A stretch of 64,000 nt of DNA from positions 224,001 to 288,000 of the forward strand of contig VMGC01000001.1 in NCBI GenBank assembly GCA_007376385.1, read 5' to 3'. The DNA comes from Parcubacteria group bacterium Gr01-1014_8. Its GTDB lineage: Bacteria > Patescibacteriota > Minisyncoccia > Phycocordibacterales > UBA2100. The notes under the pieces were generated by a model. It was not told the DNA's origin and searched no databases. It saw nothing but the letters and a program-made list of their open reading frames with translations. Positions 15,620 to 31,430 of the stretch are shown piece by piece. The translations under genes were made by a program, and so were the position numbers. Positions within the stretch are counted from its first letter, which is position 1, and each line of letters starts with the position of its first letter.

Positions 15620-16340
15620 GTCCTGAACTACCGACCTCGGTGGTTTTTTTGACCCTCCTGTGAGGAGGGACAGAAGGCTTGAACTTTGACAACTGAATAT
15701 GAAAAATTGTACGCAAAACCAAAAAAGAAATTGGTAAGTAAAATTGTTGCCGGCGCTCGCTCGGAATTGAAAATTTATTTTCATTTCGCTCGCTCGCATG
15801 GGCAATAAGAATTCTTGTTGTTCTCAAGTTAGGAACAATAAGACACACACAAAAGCAAGAAAACAGAAAATACATATTGAGGTTCCAGGAGGATCTCATG
15901 TGTAAGTAAACAGTAATAACGAGACAAAAGATCCCCCAAGGGGACTGCGACTTTCTACGATTCAAATGAATCGTGAAAGTCGGGAGATATACATTCTTTT
16001 GTTTCGTCCATCCTAGAGATATTGAAGCAATTCAAATTCTTGAAAGTGGTGTAAAAACCATTTTTACTTAGAGTTTGATCCTAGCTCAGGGTGAATGCTG
16101 GCGGTATGGATAAGGCATGCAAGTCGAATGGGTTAGACCCATGGCAGACGAGGTAGTAACAGGTAGGTACGTCCCCGGAAGTCGGGCATAACCAGCCGAA
16201 AGGTTGGATAATTCCCGATGGTCTCGCAAGAGTAAAGATTTATCGCTTCCGGAGCGGCCTGCTTTGTATCAGCTTGTTGGTGAGGTAACGGCTCACCAAG
16301 GCTATGACGCATAGGGGACCTGAGAGGGTGACCCCCACCG

Positions 16341-16377
<37 letters not shown>

Positions 16378-16891
16378 TGCAGCCGAGAATATTCGACAAT
16401 GGGCGAAAGCCTGATCGAGCGATACCGCGTGGTGGATGAAGCGCTTCGGCGCGTAAACACCTTTTATGAGGGAAGAAATTTTGACGGTACCTCATGAATA
16501 AGGGGCTCCTAACTCTGTGCCAGCAGGAGCGGTAATACAGAGGCCCCAAGCATTACCCGGAATTACTGGGCGTAAAGGGTGCGTAGGTGGTCATATTAGT
16601 CGCCTGTTAAAACCCACGGCTCAACTGTGGAACCGCGGGCGAAACGGTATGACTAGAGAGAGTGAGAGGTGAATGGAACTCATGGTGTAGGGGTGAAATC
16701 CGTTGATATCATGGGGAACACCGAAAGCGAAGGCAATTCACTGGCACTTTTCTGACACTCAAGCACGAAAGCGTGGGTAGCGAACGGGATTAGATACCCC
16801 GGTAGTCCACGCCCTAAACGATGATCGCTGGATTTGGGGAGTATCGACCCTCTCCGAGTCGAAGCTAACGCGTTAAGCGATCCGCCTGGGT

Positions 16892-16923
<32 letters not shown>

Positions 16924-17390
16924 AGACGGGGGCTTGCACAAGTGGTGGAGCGTGTGGCTCAATTCGTCGCTAAGCGAAGAACCTTACCAGGGCTAGAAAT
17001 CCAGCTGCATACTTTGGGAAACCTTAGTAGCCTTCGAGGGTGCTGGACAGGTGATGCATGGCTGTCGTCAGTTCGTGGTTTGAATCGTTCCCTTCAGTGG
17101 GGTAACGAACGCAACCCTCGTTGCCTGTTATATTTGTCAGGCGAGACTGCCCCCTCACGGGGGAGGAAGGTGAGGATGACGCCAAGTCAGCATGTCCCTC
17201 TGATGTCCTGGGCTGCACACGCGCTACAATCGCCGTTACAACGAGGCGCAACGTCGTAAGACCGAGCAAATCTTTCAAAAGCGGCGCCAGTTCGGATTGA
17301 GGTCTGCAACCCGACCTCATGAAGCCGGAATCACTAGTAATCGCGGGTCAGCCACACCGCGGTGAATACGTTCTCAAGCCTTGTACTCAC

Positions 17391-18234
17391 AATAAAAGCG
17401 CACAGCAGTGTACATATCTATGCGGTTAAAATCCGCACCTCTCTTTCGTACAGAGAGCGTAGCAGAAGGATAGTTGTTATCCGCGAGGATGATAATGGAG
17501 GATCCTAATGCAAAGAGCAGCCATTTCGCACAAAAGCCGACCGACCTGTCAATGGGTGGTGAGGATAGGGAAGGTCCTAGAAAGGCAAGAAAATGGATGC
17601 CTAGAACAGATACGCACATAACCTGTGGAGATCTGACGCTGTTATCCCAAAGATGGGATATGATGAATCTGACGCAGCGTCAGAAGTCAGCTGAGTCATA
17701 GTATTTGCAGATATGCAAAAAAGGACTCACTCAAAGCAAAATCTTAGTCCAGATTATGTTGTTGGACTCGTAGATGGTGAAGGAAGCTTTACTGTCTACG
17801 TAAGAAATCCAGACATAGAGAAAAAAGTCGCTCGAAGAGTGGTTGTAGAGCCAAAATTCTACATAAAACTAATCGAACGCGACAAAGATATTCTCTATGC
17901 ACTTCGAGATTTCTTCGGATGTGGAAGTATTTACTTCCAAAAAGATAATCGTCCGAATCATCAACATTGCTATCGTTACGAGGTCTTCCGGTGGGAAGAA
18001 CTTCAAACGATAATCATTCCGTTCTTCAAGCGGCACGTTCTCAAATTCGCGTCAAAACGGCACGACTTTGAAGTGTTTTGCATGATGATGGAGCTTCTCA
18101 AAAAAGAAGCACATCGAACGGAAAAAGGACTACGAGAGTTGTTTAAGTTGAAACAACGCATGCATTGAGCTCGCGTAGTGCGGGAAATCCGCTCGCTACG
18201 TGGGAACATCAATTCTTAGATTCAAGAAGATAAT
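17391..18234 (+). mobile_element. Intervening sequence (intron) in the 16S rRNA near E. coli position ~1390-1400, carrying a homing endonuclease gene
   Basis: The 16S collinearity breaks after CCTTGTACTCAC (17390) and resumes at CGCCCGTCAACTC (18235). The 844-nt insert contains the LAGLIDADG ORF. Confidence 0.6.
17713..18168 (+). CDS. LAGLIDADG homing endonuclease (single-motif type), intron-encoded
   Basis: 151 aa. VVGLVDGEGSF is a LAGLIDADG motif. The gene lies entirely inside the 16S insertion. Confidence 0.8.
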   Translation: MQKRTHSKQNLSPDYVVGLVDGEGSFTVYVRNPDIEKKVARRVVVEPKFYIKLIERDKDILYALRDFFGCGSIYFQKDNRPNHQHCYRYEVFRWEELQTIIIPFFKRHVLKFASKRHDFEVFCMMMELLKKEAHRTEKGLRELFKLKQRMH

Positions 18235-19113: not shown

Positions 19114-20778
19114 GTGATATGCTTTTTGTATATGACTGACGGGTTGAAAGAATGGAAGAAGCCGGAAGTAACAGACATTTCTTCTGAAGAGCCAGTAAAG
19201 GAGAAAGCGGAGCTGACAGAAGAATTAAAAGATCATATCAGGCAAGACTTGGAATTGGATACGTACGACACACCAGAGAAAGCGAAAAAACGCCGTACGC
19301 AATTGGCAATATTTTATGGTACGAACGTGCAGCAGATTGGGGCAGTTTCTGCGTATAAAAAGCGCGATGGTAAATTAAGCTTAGAGGCAAAATTTGAAAA
19401 ACTACCTCCCGCTCCACCGAAAATCGAAACAGAGTATGACAATTTTACAAAGCGTGCATGGCGGCAGAAAATCTTCAATGCTATAAAGAACGATTTTACT
19501 CAAGAGCAGCTGCAACGTGCTCGAGTCCTATGTTTTCCCGGACAAGCTTTACAAGAGGTGACCGAAGTTTATTTGCCACTAGGTATTCGACCAGAAAATA
19601 TTGTGTGTATTGAGAAGGATCCAGATGTTGTGAAAACCATGAGAAAAAACCTCAAGGCACTCATCCAAACGAAGGTGCTGAGCCAATCTGTCTCCATTTT
19701 CGAAGGAAGTGTCGAGGAATTTTTACAGAGCTCACATGAGCCCGTAACCATCGCTTCATTCGATCTTTTGGGGCCTATGTACGAGGGATTTTTGATGAGT
19801 ATTCCCAATCTCCGTGTCGCGGATAAATTCATGGTTATTACGAATTGTTTGCAGCGCAGGGAACAGAAAAATCAGCAAGATGCATTGAAGTCAATGACGT
19901 CAGCAACGCGTGCGGTAGGGAGCGCACTCGATGCGCTCCAGAATTATAAGCACATTCTCCCGGGTGTTGGCAGCACATCTTTCGACGTGAGTCACCTCAT
20001 GGCTCAAATTGCAAGGGCAAATCAACAACCGATAGACCTTTCAGAAGCGCGAGATGAAGGTGCGGCTATCACGATGATAGCTTTTCTCTTAGGAGGTCAA
20101 GCCAAACAGTCACTCGATGATCTCTACTCTGAAGCTAGCATCGTTCCACCGCGGTTCAAGTCAGATGACGACCGACAAGCTTTTGAAGATCACACGCTCG
20201 GAACACTGATACGTGGGATTGAACAATTAGTTATAAACTATTCTAGAGTGTATTCGCGATTGTCGCTGAAATCCGACGTAAACATATTGGAAAACACCCT
20301 TAGTAGAAGCGATACCGGAAAACATGGATTTTTATTGCACTTTCTCACCGTGGCGACGCATTGCATGAGCGATCTTACGATTTGCGATTTACAACGGTAT
20401 GAATATTCAAGCGAGAAATCCGGGTCTCCATATCAGACGGATGTGATCACGTTGTTTGATTGGAAGCGGAATTTCCGCGAGAAGCATCGGGAAGCATATC
20501 ATTTCATCCGAGATTGTTTTCGAGTGATCGGTCAACACTCGGTAGATCAGATTTCCTTCCAGTTTAAAAAAGGCATCACGGTTTTACCGAAAAACTATGC
20601 TGGCAGCAACGCAAAGATAGATTTAACGGTGAACGTAAACGGCAAGCAGTTTCTCAGTATATCGTTCAGCAAACTCCTTGAGCTAGTGGCTTACTTTAGG
20701 AAAACGGAGAAAATCGTTACAAAAGGAAAAATACCACAGGACTTTTTGGAACGGCCGCGAATCAAGATAGAAACATAG
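19114..20778 (+). CDS. Hypothetical protein (554 aa); N-terminal ~240 aa resemble a Rossmann-fold SAM methyltransferase
   Basis: VLCFPGQALQEVTEVYL (motif-I-like, compare Erm/KsgA hhEIGPGxGxLT), IVCIEKDPDVV (motif II hhhhExD) and FEGSVEEF (compare Erm/KsgA IHGDALKF). The C-terminal 300 aa are unrecognised. The gene lies in the AT-richer insert downstream of the 16S. Confidence 0.5.
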   Translation: MICFLYMTDGLKEWKKPEVTDISSEEPVKEKAELTEELKDHIRQDLELDTYDTPEKAKKRRTQLAIFYGTNVQQIGAVSAYKKRDGKLSLEAKFEKLPPAPPKIETEYDNFTKRAWRQKIFNAIKNDFTQEQLQRARVLCFPGQALQEVTEVYLPLGIRPENIVCIEKDPDVVKTMRKNLKALIQTKVLSQSVSIFEGSVEEFLQSSHEPVTIASFDLLGPMYEGFLMSIPNLRVADKFMVITNCLQRREQKNQQDALKSMTSATRAVGSALDALQNYKHILPGVGSTSFDVSHLMAQIARANQQPIDLSEARDEGAAITMIAFLLGGQAKQSLDDLYSEASIVPPRFKSDDDRQAFEDHTLGTLIRGIEQLVINYSRVYSRLSLKSDVNILENTLSRSDTGKHGFLLHFLTVATHCMSDLTICDLQRYEYSSEKSGSPYQTDVITLFDWKRNFREKHREAYHFIRDCFRVIGQHSVDQISFQFKKGITVLPKNYAGSNAKIDLTVNVNGKQFLSISFSKLLELVAYFRKTEKIVTKGKIPQDFLERPRIKIET

Positions 20779-21657: not shown

Positions 21658-21729
21658 GCGCGTTTAGCTCAGTGGTAGAGCATCCCTCTGATAAGGGGAA
21701 GGCCGTAGGTTCAATCCCTACAACGCGCA
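21658..21729 (+). tRNA. tRNA-Ile (anticodon GAT)
   Basis: GCGCGTT acceptor, AGCTCAGTGGTAGAGC D-arm, anticodon loop CTGATAA (GAT), T-arm GGTTCAATCC, 3' acceptor AACGCGC plus A. CCA is not encoded. Confidence 0.85.
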
Positions 21730-28202: not shown

Positions 28203-29569
28203 TATACATTGGCAGGAAGCGTGACAGTGAATGTCGTGCCGTTTGCTTCTGACGAATTGCACGTGATAGTGCCCCTGTGAAAATCAACTATTTTTTTGGA
28301 GATATACAAGCCGAATCCAGTCCCCATCGCGCCTGACTCTTCGGCATTGGTGCCTCGGAATCCCTTGAATATCGAGTCGAGGTCAGTTTTTGAAATACTG
28401 ATGCCGCGATTGTGCACTTGGAACATTCTGGATGTTTGATCGTCTACATAGGAGATTGAGACCACTGAACCGGGGGGAGAATATTTAACTGCATTGGATA
28501 GCAGATTATCGAATACAAGGCGCAGTTTCTCTGCGTCGCCCATAACCATCGCCGACGTGTCCGGCCCGATATCGGACTGAATGGTGATATTTTTGGCTTT
28601 TCCTAAGGAAAGCCCGTCGGCGATAGCACTTCTGAGGACACGGGCAACATTGACCGGCTTGAAATCAGCCCTACGCATGAGACCGTGGTCGGCTGACGTT
28701 GTCAGCAGGAACGTGGAGGTCAAGTCGATGAGCGAACATATGCGGAGGTAAATGTCGTTCAATGTGTCTCGCATTTCTGGTCTCAGCGAGGTGTCCAGCC
28801 TCAGTGTCGAAAGGCTCCATCGCAAAGAAGCGAGCGGTGAGCGCAGTTCGTGCGATGCGACGGCTACGAAGTCTTCTTTCATTTTGACGAGGTCTTGCTC
28901 TCTCTTATTAAAAACGTATAGCATGCTGACGAGCGAGAGCAGTGCGATGGTTGCTAGGAGTACAAGACCCGATTGCAGGTAGAAAACTAAGCGGTGGGTG
29001 TCTGCATTTTGATCAAATCCAATGAGTGCAACTGTTGTTCCGCTGGCATTCACGACAGGTGCCAGGGCAGATATCCAATTGCCCCAGCGGTCTGCGTATA
29101 TTTCTAGGACGAAGGGAACATTGGGGTTCCATCCATTTATCAGAGCCGGAGATGCCTCTACATACTCCTGCCCAGGAGGAGAGTAATCTTCGGACGAAGG
29201 GTCCTCCGAATCGAGCATGAAGTACACGCGGCCATTCCGCATTGCCATCAAGTACGCAAAACGCAGGTCTTTGTTGGCATCCTTTAGTGCGGTGATCTTT
29301 TTCTTCAGCAAGATGTATACGGGGTTGTCGAGGTCTGCTTCAGACAGTGTTAGTTGAGACATCTCCGCAGGCTCAAGAACAGTAGCAACAGACTGCACGC
29401 GCCTCACCAACTGCTCGTAGGTCTGGGTGTTTGTTGTGTGGCCGACATAAAAGAATGCGAGCGCACTTACTGCAAGTATCGCTACGCACGCGACGTAGTA
29501 GAGAATATCCTCTCTCTTCAAGCCCCGCTTGCCGAAAGGCATAGAGGAATTATACGGGACATTTAGCAT
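28202..29569 (-). CDS. Sensor histidine kinase
   Basis: N-terminal TM, extracytoplasmic domain and second TM. H-box ASHELRSPLASL. HATPase_c G-boxes (NAVKYS, GTGFGLYISKKIV). Confidence 0.85.
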   Translation of the reverse strand: MLNVPYNSSMPFGKRGLKREDILYYVACVAILAVSALAFFYVGHTTNTQTYEQLVRRVQSVATVLEPAEMSQLTLSEADLDNPVYILLKKKITALKDANKDLRFAYLMAMRNGRVYFMLDSEDPSSEDYSPPGQEYVEASPALINGWNPNVPFVLEIYADRWGNWISALAPVVNASGTTVALIGFDQNADTHRLVFYLQSGLVLLATIALLSLVSMLYVFNKREQDLVKMKEDFVAVASHELRSPLASLRWSLSTLRLDTSLRPEMRDTLNDIYLRICSLIDLTSTFLLTTSADHGLMRRADFKPVNVARVLRSAIADGLSLGKAKNITIQSDIGPDTSAMVMGDAEKLRLVFDNLLSNAVKYSPPGSVVSISYVDDQTSRMFQVHNRGISISKTDLDSIFKGFRGTNAEESGAMGTGFGLYISKKIVDFHRGTITCNSSEANGTTFTVTLPANV

Positions 29570-29582
29570 GGAGCTTTTACTG

Positions 29583-29618
29583 TGTGGATAAATTGGTAGA
29601 CGCTACTAGTCTCAGGAT
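29583..29618 (+). pseudogene. tRNA-Leu-like 5' fragment (D-arm plus anticodon loop CAG), truncated after the anticodon loop
   Basis: GTGGATAAATTGGTAGACGC matches the class-II tRNA D-arm consensus. It is followed by CTAGT CTCAGGA (U33, CAG, purine-37). There is no 3' half and no proper acceptor stem. Confidence 0.3.
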
Positions 29619-29630
29619 AAAATTGAGAAT

Positions 29631-30386
29631 GTGAAAAGAGGACCGAAACCGAAAGGGCAGGTAAGTACAAATTGGTCATCGGACTTTGCTTACGTCATTG
29701 GATTAATTACTGCCGATGGTTGTCTGCTTAATGATGGCCGACACATTGATTTTACTTCAAAAGATCGAGAGCAAGTTGCAACGTTCAAAAAATGCTTAAA
29801 GCTCAAAGCCAAGATCGGCATCAAACATTCTGGGATCGGAAACGAGTACTACCGCATACAATTTGGCGATGTTTTGTTTTATGCATTTCTTGTTAGCATC
29901 GGCTTATCTCCTGCAAAATCAAAAACAATCTCTCACGTGCTTGTTCCTGATGAATATTTTCTGGATTTTCTCAGAGGTTACTTCGATGGAGATGGCACAA
30001 GTTATTCTTTTTACGATTCAATCTTCCCAAAAAGTTACCGATTCTATATATCGTTTATGTCGGCAAGTCCCGTCTATATTCATTGGCTAAGAAAAAAGAT
30101 AAGTGATTTTTTACACATTCAGGGGCATCTCGACCGCAGTGGTAACAAGCCGTACATTCAACTCAAATTCTCAAAGAAAGAAGCAGTGATACTAGCCAAA
30201 GGTATGTACTATTCTAGCGGCATTCCGTGGTTAACGCGGAAGCATTTGAAGATTCAGCGATCTTTACGCATAATCGAGGCAGGCCGCGGTGGTGAAATTG
30301 GTAAACACGCTGCGTTCAGAACGCAGTTCTCGCAAGGGGTTGGGAGTTCGAGTCTCCCCCGCGGCACATCAAAATTTGCTCATTAA
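29631..30386 (+). CDS. LAGLIDADG homing endonuclease (double-motif type); reading frame runs through the downstream tRNA-Leu
   Basis: YVIGLITADGCLL and LRGYFDGDGTSY are two LAGLIDADG motifs. The frame is already open from 29610 inside the tRNA fragment. The last ~35 codons are tRNA-Leu sequence, and the stop at 30384 lies past the tRNA. Confidence 0.75.
   Translation: MKRGPKPKGQVSTNWSSDFAYVIGLITADGCLLNDGRHIDFTSKDREQVATFKKCLKLKAKIGIKHSGIGNEYYRIQFGDVLFYAFLVSIGLSPAKSKTISHVLVPDEYFLDFLRGYFDGDGTSYSFYDSIFPKSYRFYISFMSASPVYIHWLRKKISDFLHIQGHLDRSGNKPYIQLKFSKKEAVILAKGMYYSSGIPWLTRKHLKIQRSLRIIEAGRGGEIGKHAAFRTQFSQGVGSSSLPRGTSKFAH
30283..30366 (+). tRNA. tRNA-Leu (anticodon CAG), class II with long variable arm
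   Basis: GCCGCGG acceptor, GTGAAATTGGTAAACAC D-arm, CTGCG-TTCAGAA-CGCAG anticodon arm (CAG), ~15-nt variable arm, GGGAGTTCGAGTCTCCC T-arm, CCGCGGC-A 3' acceptor. Confidence 0.8.
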
Positions 30387-30792
30387 CTGGCGCGGAATTC
30401 CGAGATACACTCTGTTCGCCAGCGGATATTCTCCGAAGATGGCAAAGCCCTGAGGTCTTGGCACTCCCTTTTCTTGTATTGGCAGTTTGTATCCTGAAGG
30501 CGTTCCTGTCATGCCAGCATCTACTACGACGACCGGAGTTACCCCTCCTTTAAATATCACCACCCTCATTTTTTTTGTGATCGCCGCTGACTATCAAAAT
30601 TCTCACCGTAACATCCTCGCCTGCAAGTTGTAGTGGAAAAAGTTTCTCTTTGATGTGCTCAGTATCTGGGTAAACTTGAATTCCGTGTTGCAAAACGTGA
30701 GCGAAAAGTTCCTCAGCCAATTTCCGTCGCTCTTCCTGCGTGCCTTCGGTCGCCGCGACGAAGTCGACTATTTTGAAATACTTTTCGGGCAA
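30369..30792 (-). pseudogene. Hypothetical protein split by a frameshift at an A8/T8 homopolymer (30568-30576)
   Basis: ORFs 30550..30792 and 30369..30569 are adjacent and same-strand. Removing one A in the A8 run fuses them into a single ~146-aa ORF. Confidence 0.35.
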
Positions 30793-30977
30793 GGGAATTC
30801 CTTGCTAGACTGAAGGCTTCTCAATCAGCTCTTCTGCTCGTGGAGTTTCAGGAGCATCTTTTTCTCCTGCGCGTCCGCCGACCCAGCGAGAACCCCCCAC
30901 AATGCCTACTGCCCCGAGCGTTCTTCTTATCCCCCTGGCAAGGTCGTCTAATCCCATTGGCCCATTATACTGTCAGC

Positions 30978-31430
30978 ATGGACATCAAGGAGCACACACA
31001 GCCAGCGAAACTCGAGCGGTATAGCTTTCTCTGGTCCGAAGTTCGTCTCGTCATCGCTGCCGTGGCGCTTCTTCTGGGCGGGATCCCGCCAGCATTGTAT
31101 CTTCTGCCGATTCCCGCTCTGTACGGTCTTATCATAGTTCTTTTAAAACTTGCGTGGATTGTTTCAGGTGCGGCGTCTGCTTACTTGCTCTACCGATGGT
31201 ACATCGGGGGGCGGAAAGTATTCGGCGGTAATGACATGAAAGATAACGTTGCGTTCTTCGTGAGTGTCATTTCCGGCATTAATCTTGGCATCGTGGGGCT
31301 GCTCGGCACGAATATCGGCATGTCCATAACGAGCAACTATATCGTTTTTGTCATCGTCGCGCTCCTCTATCTTGCGGCAGCGTATCAACTCTACACGCGT
31401 TGGAAATCACACGGAGAGAAGATTTCCTAG
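30978..31430 (+). CDS. Hypothetical membrane protein (4 predicted TM)
   Basis: Start placed at ATG 30978 (MDIKEHTQ). Four hydrophobic helices. Confidence 0.45.
   Translation: MDIKEHTQPAKLERYSFLWSEVRLVIAAVALLLGGIPPALYLLPIPALYGLIIVLLKLAWIVSGAASAYLLYRWYIGGRKVFGGNDMKDNVAFFVSVISGINLGIVGLLGTNIGMSITSNYIVFVIVALLYLAAAYQLYTRWKSHGEKIS

Follow-up and report, generated by a model that had tools for sequence, protein, structure and literature searches.

As far as we are aware, homing endonucleases are thought to persist in essential genes only under cover of a self-splicing intron or an intein. The gene for SegB of phage T4 lies in the tRNA gene cluster of the phage. The T-even phages possess free-standing homing endonucleases responsible for intronless homing (PMC3984707; SegB is also treated in PMC13096335), in which a gene that belongs to no intron or intein is believed to invade empty alleles by cutting them and being copied in when the break is repaired, the carrier allele being protected by sequence differences. 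A further case without introns is represented by the mobile endonuclease ORFs (mORFs) of fungal mitochondria, reported in atp6 of Allomyces macrogynus and in atp6, atp9, cox2 and nad3 of Glomus, which encode LAGLIDADG enzymes in most of the Glomus genes and a GIY-YIG enzyme in atp9 (PMC3630166). From a structural perspective, a mORF is an intron-less endonuclease ORF inserted in a host gene, to which it brings a foreign copy of the part that it displaces; the native part stays adjacent as an unexpressed duplicate, and native and inserted sequences are of different types (PMC3630166). As regards tRNA genes, group I introns are found in bacteria at the anticodon loop (positions 33/34 to 36/37), and a survey of tRNA introns in Patescibacteria reported only HNH enzymes, in tRNA-Asn introns, and did not describe the layout presented below (PMC13011429). 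Finally, insertions in the rRNA genes of CPR bacteria carry LAGLIDADG genes, and many of these insertions are group I or II introns (PMC11270868, a text in which the word tRNA is absent).

The locus considered here belongs to a 64,000-nt stretch of DNA from a Parcubacteria genome, hereafter the window, to which all coordinates refer. It is composed, from 5' to 3', of a 5' piece of tRNA-Leu(CAG), an ORF with two LAGLIDADG motifs and an intact tRNA-Leu(CAG). This order had been noticed in a preliminary description made from the sequence and was confirmed by ARAGORN, Rfam, Pfam and comparisons of the fragment. The explanation that we favor, and regard as probable, is that of a homing-endonuclease cassette with tRNA-Leu genes as its targets and a replacement tRNA on board. 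Similarly to a mORF, a native part, apparently displaced, and what seems to be a foreign functional copy flank the ORF. Unlike in mORFs, the host gene is a bacterial tRNA gene, the displaced part is the upstream 5' half and not the 3' end, the cassette seems to bring a whole tRNA with its promoter instead of an in-frame gene end, and the displaced fragment is conserved, whereas it decays in mORFs. With the T-even enzymes the cassette shares a gene outside introns and inteins; the mode of spreading and the protection of the carrier allele may also be comparable. The Seg enzymes, in contrast, are of the GIY-YIG type and are encoded between genes, with neither a split tRNA nor a replacement, while the cassette encodes a LAGLIDADG enzyme in cellular CPR genomes, and viral contigs hold only distant homologs of it, none adjoining tRNAs in 24 loci. 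As in the tRNA group I introns, the interruption falls in or by the anticodon loop and the apparent target is a conserved tRNA gene; unlike them, the cassette has no ribozyme or splicing, and a second tRNA would make up for the lost function at the level of the DNA. The enzymes of the CPR rRNA insertions come from the same host group and the same superfamily, but they are mostly single-motif LAGLIDADG_1/2 proteins located inside rRNA insertions (PMC11270868).

Layout of the locus and its distribution in CPR bacteria

All the features lie on the plus strand. The remnant of the 5' half of a resident-type tRNA-Leu(CAG) (29581-29617), corresponding on a comparative basis to about tRNA positions 4-38, directly abuts a -10-like box, TAAAAT (29618-29623), located 7 nt before a GTG start codon, so that 13 nt separate the fragment from the start. 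The ORF (29631-30386, 251 aa) comprises the conserved core of the endonuclease gene (29631-30282, aa 1-217), defined by Pfam PF14528, homologs and an AF2 model, and a tail (30283-30386, aa 218-251). The core reaches the intact tRNA-Leu(CAG) (30283-30367) with a spacing of 0 nt; ARAGORN and Rfam both call this one intact tRNA-Leu(CAG), Rfam with a score of 60.4 bits. According to the ORF list, the endonuclease gene is the sole ORF of the cassette. The 600 nt extending from the tRNA to a conserved 150-aa gene show no homology in the other loci and no significant Pfam match.

The endonuclease frame had been described as opening in the fragment and reading through the tRNA. The frame does open there, after a TAG at 29607-29609, although the first start codon, GTG at 29631, lies outside. 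The read-through was verified: the TAA stop (30384-30386) is found 19 nt beyond the tRNA, so that the last 34 codons consist of tRNA sequence and trailer. Most homologs are 231 aa long and end in ...GGEIGKHA[AS]FRS*, where the 3' strand of the anticodon stem (GCTAG) supplies a TAG stop; the window ORF does not meet this stop because its anticodon stem has CGCAG. The tail is thus an accidental read-through, a by-product of the layout. Gene calls for Logan locus L085 (protein P0001), which comes from another assembly source possibly based on the same reads, give an identical 251-aa product. A contig lookup with the exact protein of the GTG-start ORF returned no match. The L085 contig has the same arrangement as the window and consequently offers no presence/absence polymorphism.

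The endonuclease has 930 homologs. Of 81 CPR loci, 74 have a homologous ORF whose end coincides with the beginning of a tRNA on the same strand (ORF end within about -30 to +113 nt of the tRNA 5' end), this being tRNA-Leu in 66 loci, tRNA-Asp in 7 and tRNA-Cys in 1; three of the 74 ORFs are shortened, with homology still reaching the tRNA. The layout, initially judged unusual, is therefore common in CPR bacteria, although a full-text search of the literature, mostly outside subscription journals, found no description of it. The homologs on viral contigs share at most 41% best-segment identity; 23 of the 24 viral loci have no tRNA and the remaining one has two, more than 1.3 kb upstream. A phage vector was rejected on these grounds, the viral homologs being distant and none of the 24 viral loci abutting a tRNA.

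Given that tRNA genes are classic integration sites, the locus could also represent the scar of an integrase-mediated island in tRNA-Leu, later mostly deleted, and in locus L066 22 nt of the tRNA 3' end recur exactly, as a direct repeat, at 127 nt downstream, which fits this origin. We consider it very unlikely, as the cassette has no integrase gene, the piece duplicated in the window is the 5' half up to the anticodon and not the 3' end, of which no repeat is present, and the same compact endonuclease layout recurs in dozens of loci.

Two promoter-like signals are embedded in the cassette. In 24/24 loci inspected, 6-7 nt separate the end of a TATAAT-like hexamer from a candidate in-frame start, which was chosen by eye where several were available; with an automated scan set to the first in-frame start, 50 of 81 loci showed the box, most often at 6 nt. 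In the window the promoter scan detected no canonical -35 at 16-18 nt from the endonuclease -10 box. Judging from the sequence, TAAAAT is a putative promoter of the endonuclease gene, whose mRNA would be leaderless or near-leaderless. The D-loop motif of the fragment, TTGGTA, was considered as the -35 of this promoter and rejected as a general explanation: it lies 19 nt from the -10 box in the window and 7-21 nt from it elsewhere, a variation from which it follows that it is not a -35 element. The second signal, identified by the promoter scan, is a sigma-70-type element (TTGAAG-17 nt-CATAAT, 30246-30274) located in the 3' end of the ORF (codons LKI...RII) and ending 8 nt before the tRNA, for which it is the putative promoter. 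TTGAAR-17-CATAAT is conserved at the nucleotide level in L001-L005 and L007, TATAAT equivalents of its -10 occur in L023, L032, L039, L044 and L047, and in relatives a -10-like box is found at a comparably short spacing from the native tRNA-Leu genes.

The upstream tRNA-Leu fragment and the empty site

The fragment, TGTGTGGATAAATTGGTAGACGCTACTAGTCTCAGGA, ends just past the anticodon and has in common with the intact tRNA the stretch GTGGnnAAATTGGTAnACnC; their shared pattern has exactly 2 matches in the window, compared with 0.01 expected. It contains the D-loop TTGGTA (29593-29598), the 3' strand of the D stem, CGC (29601-29603), an extra 'TA' (29604-29605) and an anticodon-like CAG (29613-29615). 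The preliminary description, which saw a D-arm plus anticodon loop (CAG), was right about the tRNA derivation and the end after the anticodon; the fragment also retains the last acceptor bases, U8/G9 and the first D-stem base, in addition to the extra base. It had been proposed to submit this piece to tRNA callers, and these reject it: it is not called by ARAGORN and obtains no score with the Rfam tRNA model at E<=10, so that the evidence for a tRNA origin is comparative. The fragment aligns with tRNA-Leu 5' halves (p<=0.01 versus shuffles) and with the native tRNA-Leu of the relatives L081 and L083. The same motif is found 5' of the endonuclease gene in about 30-40 of the 66 Leu loci, roughly half, and fragment and downstream tRNA have the same anticodon in 28 of 30 loci that were scored (CAG 11/11, GAG 15/15, TAG 2/3). 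Because of this agreement the fragment is, by sequence comparison, tRNA-derived, and relatives do not show the upstream piece to be unrelated sequence. In loci L012, L022, L027 and L049 the 5' half is still complete, with its acceptor strand. Approximately half of the Leu loci and all the Asp, Cys and Leu(TAA) loci lack 5' fragments, none being significant there. A conserved anticodon-like hairpin was noticed by eye in L014, L015 and L017 and does not occur in the CAG class.

The ending of the fragment by the anticodon, the site of bacterial tRNA group I introns (PMC13011429), had suggested a group I or other self-splicing intron with an endonuclease gene in the tRNA-Leu anticodon loop. Such an intron is extremely improbable here. 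The ORF fills all the sequence between fragment and tRNA, the downstream tRNA has its own 5' half and is complete without splicing, and most fragments lack an acceptor strand with which the tRNA 3' end could pair; in the window, no pairing is possible between TGTG, which is what remains of the acceptor, and the 3' strand CCGCGGC. Moreover, no Rfam intron family was detected at E<=10 in 29400-30600, nor at the gathering score in 20 related loci, those scans having returned tRNAs and rRNA only. [quoted passage not shown]

Regarding its conservation, the fragment has a D-stem 3' strand CGC in about 24 of 30 cases. The window fragment carries one surplus base between the D stem and the anticodon stem, and this base ('TA' in place of N26) is present in 29 of 30 fragments, where the stretch measures 7 nt compared with 6 nt in 83 of 85 tRNA-Leu genes. 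The core columns are at least 90% conserved, versus 24% identity in control windows, and this conservation goes far beyond that of the synonymous sites of the neighboring ORF (pS about 0.8), which indicates that the fragment is inherited and under selection and not simply a fresh relic of each invasion. The sequence GGATAAAT recurs in the fragments of the window, L001, L003 and L005.

The endonuclease gene is free-standing: no intron or intein encloses it, and a relative has the corresponding site empty. This relative, L081 (PdxS about 90% identical, with relatedness judged from few genes), has no endonuclease gene and carries an uninterrupted tRNA-Leu(CAG) of GGGTGTG type in the same intergenic site, between the same histidine kinase and 150-aa genes. 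The comparison with insert-free relatives proposed at the outset thus bears out the invasion of a tRNA-Leu gene next to the anticodon, with a complete tRNA-Leu downstream. The L081 type has the acceptor GGGTGTG and the D stem GCG/CGC, and the window fragment (cTGTGTGG...TGGTAGACGC) matches it. The intact tRNA is of a different type, with acceptor GCCGCGG, D stem GTG/CAC and anticodon stem CTGCG/CGCAG. As a consequence, the regeneration or duplication of the tRNA previously suggested holds as far as a complete downstream copy is concerned, but replacement describes it better (GCCGCGG, GTG/CAC versus GGGTGTG, GCG/CGC). L001-L006 and L036 likewise have a tRNA of the GCCGCGG, GTG/CAC type linked to their endonuclease gene; by a comparison of types only, GCCGCGG occurs in Kaiserbacteria, Nomurabacteria, Peregrinibacteria and Parcubacteria loci, and endonuclease-free Kaiserbacteria-like relatives have GGG types. 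In L003 the order is native 5' piece, endonuclease gene, GCCGCGG-type tRNA and native 3' piece (ATGGGAGTTCGAGTCTCCCCGCACCCAC). No native 3' piece was found in the window on either strand of 30368-31000. The L081 tRNA is in the opposite orientation, and L001 and L003 carry inverted native 3' ends, features that simple homing does not explain.

A different reading of the same locus is that a free-standing endonuclease merely sits in the spacer 5' of tRNA-Leu without disrupting any gene, its position being stable because the tRNA promoter lies inside the endonuclease gene, and that the fragment is a decayed tandem duplicate or a tRNA-like promoter or operator. The selection acting on the fragment, its derived features common across classes (the +1 base and GGATAAAT), its contact with the endonuclease -10 box, the half of the loci without it and the synonymous saturation, by which many loci look old and not recently invaded, would all fit. 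We nevertheless consider this reading unlikely, since the anticodon match and the host-specific acceptor strands of the complete fragments point to a real tRNA source, in L003 native pieces flank the unit formed by endonuclease gene and tRNA, the endonuclease-free relative has a tRNA of another type than the linked one, and the variable distance of the D-loop motif from the -10 box excludes a -35 role.

The endonuclease and its linked tRNA

The ORF matches Pfam LAGLIDADG_3 (PF14528) in two stretches (E 6.4e-8), with motif 1, VIGLITADG, at about 29694-29720 and motif 2, LRGYFDGDG, at about 29970-29996. In a 20-sequence alignment D29/G30 and D119-G122 are invariant, and both catalytic Asp are among the invariant residues. 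The AF2 model (mean pLDDT 81, above 85 for most of aa 8-218, about 30 in the tail) predicts tandem alpha-beta-beta-alpha-beta-beta-alpha domains with a DNA-binding saddle, and its top Foldseek matches are I-Tsp061I, E-DreI, I-DmoI, I-SceI and I-AniI, with WhiA as the second-best structural match. Among solved structures, profile and fold comparisons place I-Tsp061I (2dch) and other LAGLIDADG enzymes first. I-Tsp061I and I-DmoI (2dch, 2vs7) are the closest solved relatives (profile E 2.6e-8, Foldseek E 9.5e-12), and the cassette enzyme is of their type, a monomeric, two-domain LAGLIDADG_3-type protein with two motifs; they share only about 21% identity with it and, unlike it, belong to archaeal rRNA introns and have rDNA targets. 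Purifying selection acts on the ORF, with a dN/dS of 0.06-0.09 in the closest pairs, and its synonymous sites are saturated. Degenerate copies are found in L004, L065 and L067, as expected for the life cycle of a homing endonuclease. With its invariant catalytic Asp, confident fold and low dN/dS, the endonuclease looks functional and would be active as a nuclease.

WhiA is a LAGLIDADG-derived transcription factor, and its rank among the structural matches raises the alternative of a domesticated, immobile LAGLIDADG protein, inherited vertically and having a host function linked to tRNA-Leu, for example as a regulator. Strong purifying selection together with saturated synonymous sites, and a fixed position by tRNA-Leu across many CPR lineages, would be in line with such a role. 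Nevertheless, a domesticated protein would hardly account for the invariance of both catalytic Asp, the absence of the gene from L081-L084, which have plain tRNA-Leu(CAG) genes, the pseudogenised copies and the tRNA fragments, which are scars of gene disruption, and we judge domestication quite improbable.

As for the linked tRNAs, the D-stem 3' strand CGC is present in 17 of 65 (26%), versus 14 of 21 unlinked ones (67%; Fisher p 0.0014, phylogeny-uncorrected), a difference that we count in favor of the cassette model. The 17 linked tRNAs that keep this canonical D stem count against it.

A possible route into RNA genes

In the mechanism that we propose for the invading cassette, the enzyme would cut cassette-less tRNA-Leu genes, probably in the region of the D stem and anticodon arm, this target site being our guess. 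Repair of the break would copy the cassette from a carrier genome, with the tRNA sequence as homology, and the insertion would split the resident tRNA-Leu gene. The function of the tRNA would be maintained not by splicing but by the promoter-equipped tRNA of the cassette, whose altered D stem may guard against cleavage.

Taking all the parts jointly, we tentatively put forward, as a possibility that is still somewhat doubtful, that the cassette is a selfish element of the cleave-and-rescue kind, occurring naturally and widely in CPR bacteria. Its endonuclease would destroy the resident genes for tRNA-Leu and, in sister clades, those for tRNA-Asp and tRNA-Cys, and the cassette would provide a cleavage-resistant tRNA having its promoter within the 3' end of the endonuclease gene; with the promoter embedded in this way, loss of the gene would cost the host the tRNA. 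The 5' fragment with its shared +1 base would be a selected working part, used either as the homology arm through which diverged genomes are reached by homing or, in the form of a half-site that cannot be cleaved, as an operator next to the endonuclease -10 box. Such an element would have an intron-free route to colonise essential RNA genes and would be a vehicle for the horizontal replacement of tRNA genes. ClvR, an engineered, Cas9-based cleave-and-rescue gene drive that does not home into its target, follows the same logic, a nuclease destroying a needed gene and linked to a cleavage-resistant copy of it, with the difference that the resistance of the cassette tRNA is suggested only by its D-stem differences.

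The cassette suggests a third way, specific to RNA genes, for a homing endonuclease to persist, namely a spare, promoter-equipped copy of the broken gene. If this is true, the 'hypothetical' LAGLIDADG genes that adjoin tRNAs in CPR genomes, a large class left unannotated, would be explained, horizontal replacement of tRNA genes could occur in these reduced genomes, a set of natural meganucleases with specificities for tRNA genes would be available, and the engineered cleave-and-rescue drives would have a natural counterpart. In terms of annotation, the overlap of these ORFs with tRNA genes leads gene callers to run on into tRNA sequence at either end, and a 5' tRNA fragment may be wrongly recorded as a pseudogene or a split tRNA. 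The window also holds a LAGLIDADG_1 gene, which adjoins its 16S rRNA gene.

The tRNA-Leu locus and its intron-less organization

A two-motif LAGLIDADG_3 ORF of 251 aa with a GTG start (29631-30386) lies between a tRNA-Leu(CAG) 5'-half fragment (29581-29617, TGTGTGGATAAATTGGTAGACGCTACTAGTCTCAGGA) and an intact tRNA-Leu(CAG) (30283-30367), the latter a single call of ARAGORN and Rfam. The window is of CPR bacterial origin, and the ORF product is 100% identical to a protein of 'Parcubacteria group bacterium Gr01-1014_8'. The fragment comprises the end of the acceptor strand, U8/G9, the D arm, the 5' strand of the anticodon stem and a CU-CAG-GA loop, after which the likeness to tRNA stops. The layout reported in the preliminary description is borne out by ARAGORN and Rfam and because a pattern common to fragment and intact tRNA (16 specified bases) occurs exactly twice in the window versus 0.01 expected matches. 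Likewise, the ORF does read through the whole tRNA before its stop (TAA, 30384-30386); the main correction is to its start codon, which lies 13 nt beyond the fragment. In the CAG class the frame usually closes at a TAG within the anticodon stem (GCTAG, 3' strand); the stem of the window tRNA is CTGCG/CGCAG, so that the frame runs on and the read-through is incidental. In the AlphaFold model of the product, residues 8-218 are confident and residues 219-251 have a pLDDT of about 30.

A group I intron had also been suggested, and this idea is rejected. At E<=10 no Rfam intron family matched in 29400-30600, nor did any pass its gathering score when 20 related loci were scanned. The tRNA downstream is complete unaided, and there is no space for a ribozyme, since the ORF starts 13 nt after the fragment and the conserved core abuts the tRNA.

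The same arrangement is found across the family. A total of 930 homologs of the endonuclease were detected, most of them of 231 aa with the C-terminus ...RRGGEIGKHA[AS]FRS, which is the translated 5' half of tRNA-Leu, while N-terminally extended gene calls translate the upstream fragment (LWINxYTLLxS). The window was analysed together with 80 species-representative loci. In 74 of these 81, the ORF terminates at the 5' end of a tRNA on the same strand, and in 66 of the 74 the tRNA is a tRNA-Leu (CAG, GAG, AAG, TAG, TAA); the most distant members precede tRNA-Asp (7) and tRNA-Cys (1). Of 24 viral loci with distant homologs, taken as a control, 23 lack tRNAs altogether, and the remaining one has two, both located more than 1.3 kb upstream. 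The architecture of this cassette, an endonuclease gene plus a linked complete tRNA, is well supported, and its mechanism is one that we infer.

Proposed replacement of a resident tRNA-Leu gene

The related locus L081 has the same neighbours as the window (genes for a response regulator, a histidine kinase, a 150-aa protein and PdxS/PdxT, the two PdxS proteins being about 90% identical), lacks the endonuclease gene and carries an uninterrupted tRNA-Leu(CAG) in the same intergenic space. This native tRNA reads GGGTGTGTGGCGGAACTGGTATACGCG... and shares TGTGTGG...TGGTAnACGC with the window fragment, whereas the intact tRNA of the window differs (GCCGCGG, GTG/CAC D stem). The GCCGCGG type also adjoins the endonuclease gene in loci labelled Kaiserbacteria, Nomurabacteria and Peregrinibacteria. 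Moreover, in the cassette locus L003 a native 5' piece is followed by the endonuclease gene and by a GCCGCGG-type tRNA, which directly abuts a native-type 3' end (ATGGGAGTTCGAGTCTCCCCGCACCCAC). The simplest reading of these sequences is that a unit formed by the endonuclease gene and a complete tRNA would have inserted into a resident tRNA-Leu gene.

The nearest analogue of the cassette is the fungal mitochondrial mORF, an endonuclease ORF inserted in atp6, atp9, cox2 or nad3, which brings a foreign replacement gene end while the native end stays beside it (PMC3630166). Free-standing endonucleases of phages are established as homing without an intron (PMC3984707). The cassette layout is described neither in a survey of tRNA introns in Patescibacteria (PMC13011429) nor in one of LAGLIDADG genes in CPR rRNA insertions (PMC11270868).

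The L081 tRNA is inverted relative to the window cassette. Native-type tRNA-Leu 3' ends occur in L001 (2922-2950) and L003 (217-234 and 1029-1056): in both loci one stands in reverse complement immediately before the forward 5' fragment, and in L003 a forward one also abuts the intact tRNA, so that the unit is flanked by inverted copies. These inverted ends point to local inversions, which simple homing would not account for. No native 3' piece of the tRNA was found in the window (30368-31000, both strands).

Two short overlapping ORFs on the minus strand (66 and 80 aa; 30369-30792), with no significant Pfam match, fill the roughly 600 nt from the tRNA to the conserved 150-aa gene (30966-31430), a distance of only 62 nt in L081; this extra DNA may have come with the cassette. 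In L066 (3590-3821), the last 22 nt of the intact tRNA-Leu(TAG) recur as an exact direct repeat 127 nt further downstream, either as the native 3' end after displacement or as an att-like scar left by an integrase; 15-nt versions lie about 160 nt downstream in L014 and L067.

Upstream fragment, predicted promoters and D stem

In 30 Leu loci the motif TGGTA[G/T]ACGCTA, followed by 5 nt, YT and a triplet, precedes the start by 8-48 nt, and a looser search with the D-arm anchor alone found about 40. The fragment is both tRNA-derived and target-specific, its triplet being the same as the anticodon of the tRNA downstream in 28 of the 30. Several loci retain a full 5' half whose acceptor strand is unlike that of the linked tRNA, e.g., L012 (GGGCGTG), L027 (GCCCAGG) and L049 (GCGGACG). 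From D stem to anticodon loop, 29/30 fragments have 7 nt, one base more than the 6 nt of 83/85 real tRNA-Leu genes. Furthermore, the fragment core is at least 90% conserved per column versus 24% identity in control windows, even though adjacent synonymous sites are saturated. The extra base and the core conservation do not fit a simple relic model; because of both, the fragment is judged to be inherited as part of the cassette and maintained by selection. It could serve as a homology arm for homing, or as an uncuttable half-site binding the enzyme beside the -10 box. The fragment was not detectable in half of the Leu loci, nor in any Asp, Cys or TAA locus.

In the GAG subclade (L014, L015, L017), the fragment was seen by eye to form, about 45 nt before the start codon, a hairpin of 6 bp closed by a loop of 6 nt (TATCAC-CTTGAG-GTGATA), with compensatory changes between loci and a 3' strand overlapping the -10 box. 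Chloroflexi-labelled cassette loci carry a canonical TTGACA-N16/17-TAGAAT promoter where the fragment would be.

Both promoters, that of the endonuclease gene and that of the tRNA, are predicted from sequence. In 24/24 loci inspected, a candidate in-frame start codon follows 6-7 nt after the end of a TATAAT-like hexamer, the fitting start having been picked by eye among several; an automated scan using the first in-frame start found the box in 50/81 loci (mode 6 nt). In the window the box is TAAAAT (29618-29623, by inspection). This short spacing suggests a leaderless endonuclease mRNA. A putative tRNA promoter, TTGAAG-17 nt-CATAAT (30246-30274), lies inside the last ORF codons and ends 8 nt before the tRNA. 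The replacement tRNA seems to bring a promoter of its own, embedded in the endonuclease gene, since the motif is conserved at the nucleotide level in the closest loci, with TATAAT equivalents in other subfamilies, and in relatives -10-like boxes are similarly close to the native tRNA-Leu genes.

The canonical CGC as D-stem 3' strand occurs in 14/21 unlinked tRNA-Leu genes and about 24/30 fragments versus only 17/65 linked tRNAs (p 0.0014 for linked versus unlinked, uncorrected for phylogeny). Because CGC is rarer in linked tRNAs and the extra base of the fragment falls in the same part of the tRNA, we hypothesize a role for positions 23-27 in recognition and a possible resistance of the linked tRNA.

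The enzyme, its relatives and a second LAGLIDADG gene

Both catalytic Asp residues are invariant, and among solved structures the archaeal intron enzyme I-Tsp061I is the best relative (profile search E 2.6e-8; Foldseek E 9.5e-12). Synonymous sites are saturated in most pairs (pS about 0.8), dN/dS is 0.06-0.09 in the closest pairs and the ORF is broken at 3 loci. These values fit a long-lived endonuclease lineage that would be active now or was so until recently.

The distant members L071-L078 and L073 (31-36% identity) occupy the same position before tRNA-Asp(GTC) and tRNA-Cys(GCA), which suggests sister clades with other tRNA targets. At L008 (851-1602) the cassette tRNA is inverted, a tRNA-Leu(CAG) on the minus strand (1518-1602) overlapping the 3' end of the endonuclease gene. 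Nine cassette contigs (L025, L042, L043, L045, L047, L055, L069, L070, L033) are labelled Gammaproteobacteria, Chloroflexi, Omnitrophota, Planctomycetia or Nanoarchaeota and could be mis-binned CPR contigs or reflect transfer beyond CPR.

Elsewhere in the window, the 16S rRNA gene (16063-17422) spans the whole Rfam model (positions 1-1533) although it is just 1360 nt long. A 554-aa ORF without Pfam match (19114-20778) lies between the 16S region and tRNA-Ile, which first appears at 21658. Downstream of the 16S gene comes a match to group-II-intron D1-D4 (17639-17726, 42.3 bits), overlapped by a 151-aa ORF (17713-18168) for a LAGLIDADG_1 protein (E 5.5e-15). This second LAGLIDADG gene of the window is unrelated to the first and lies in a group-II-like insertion located at the 16S 3' end or beyond it.
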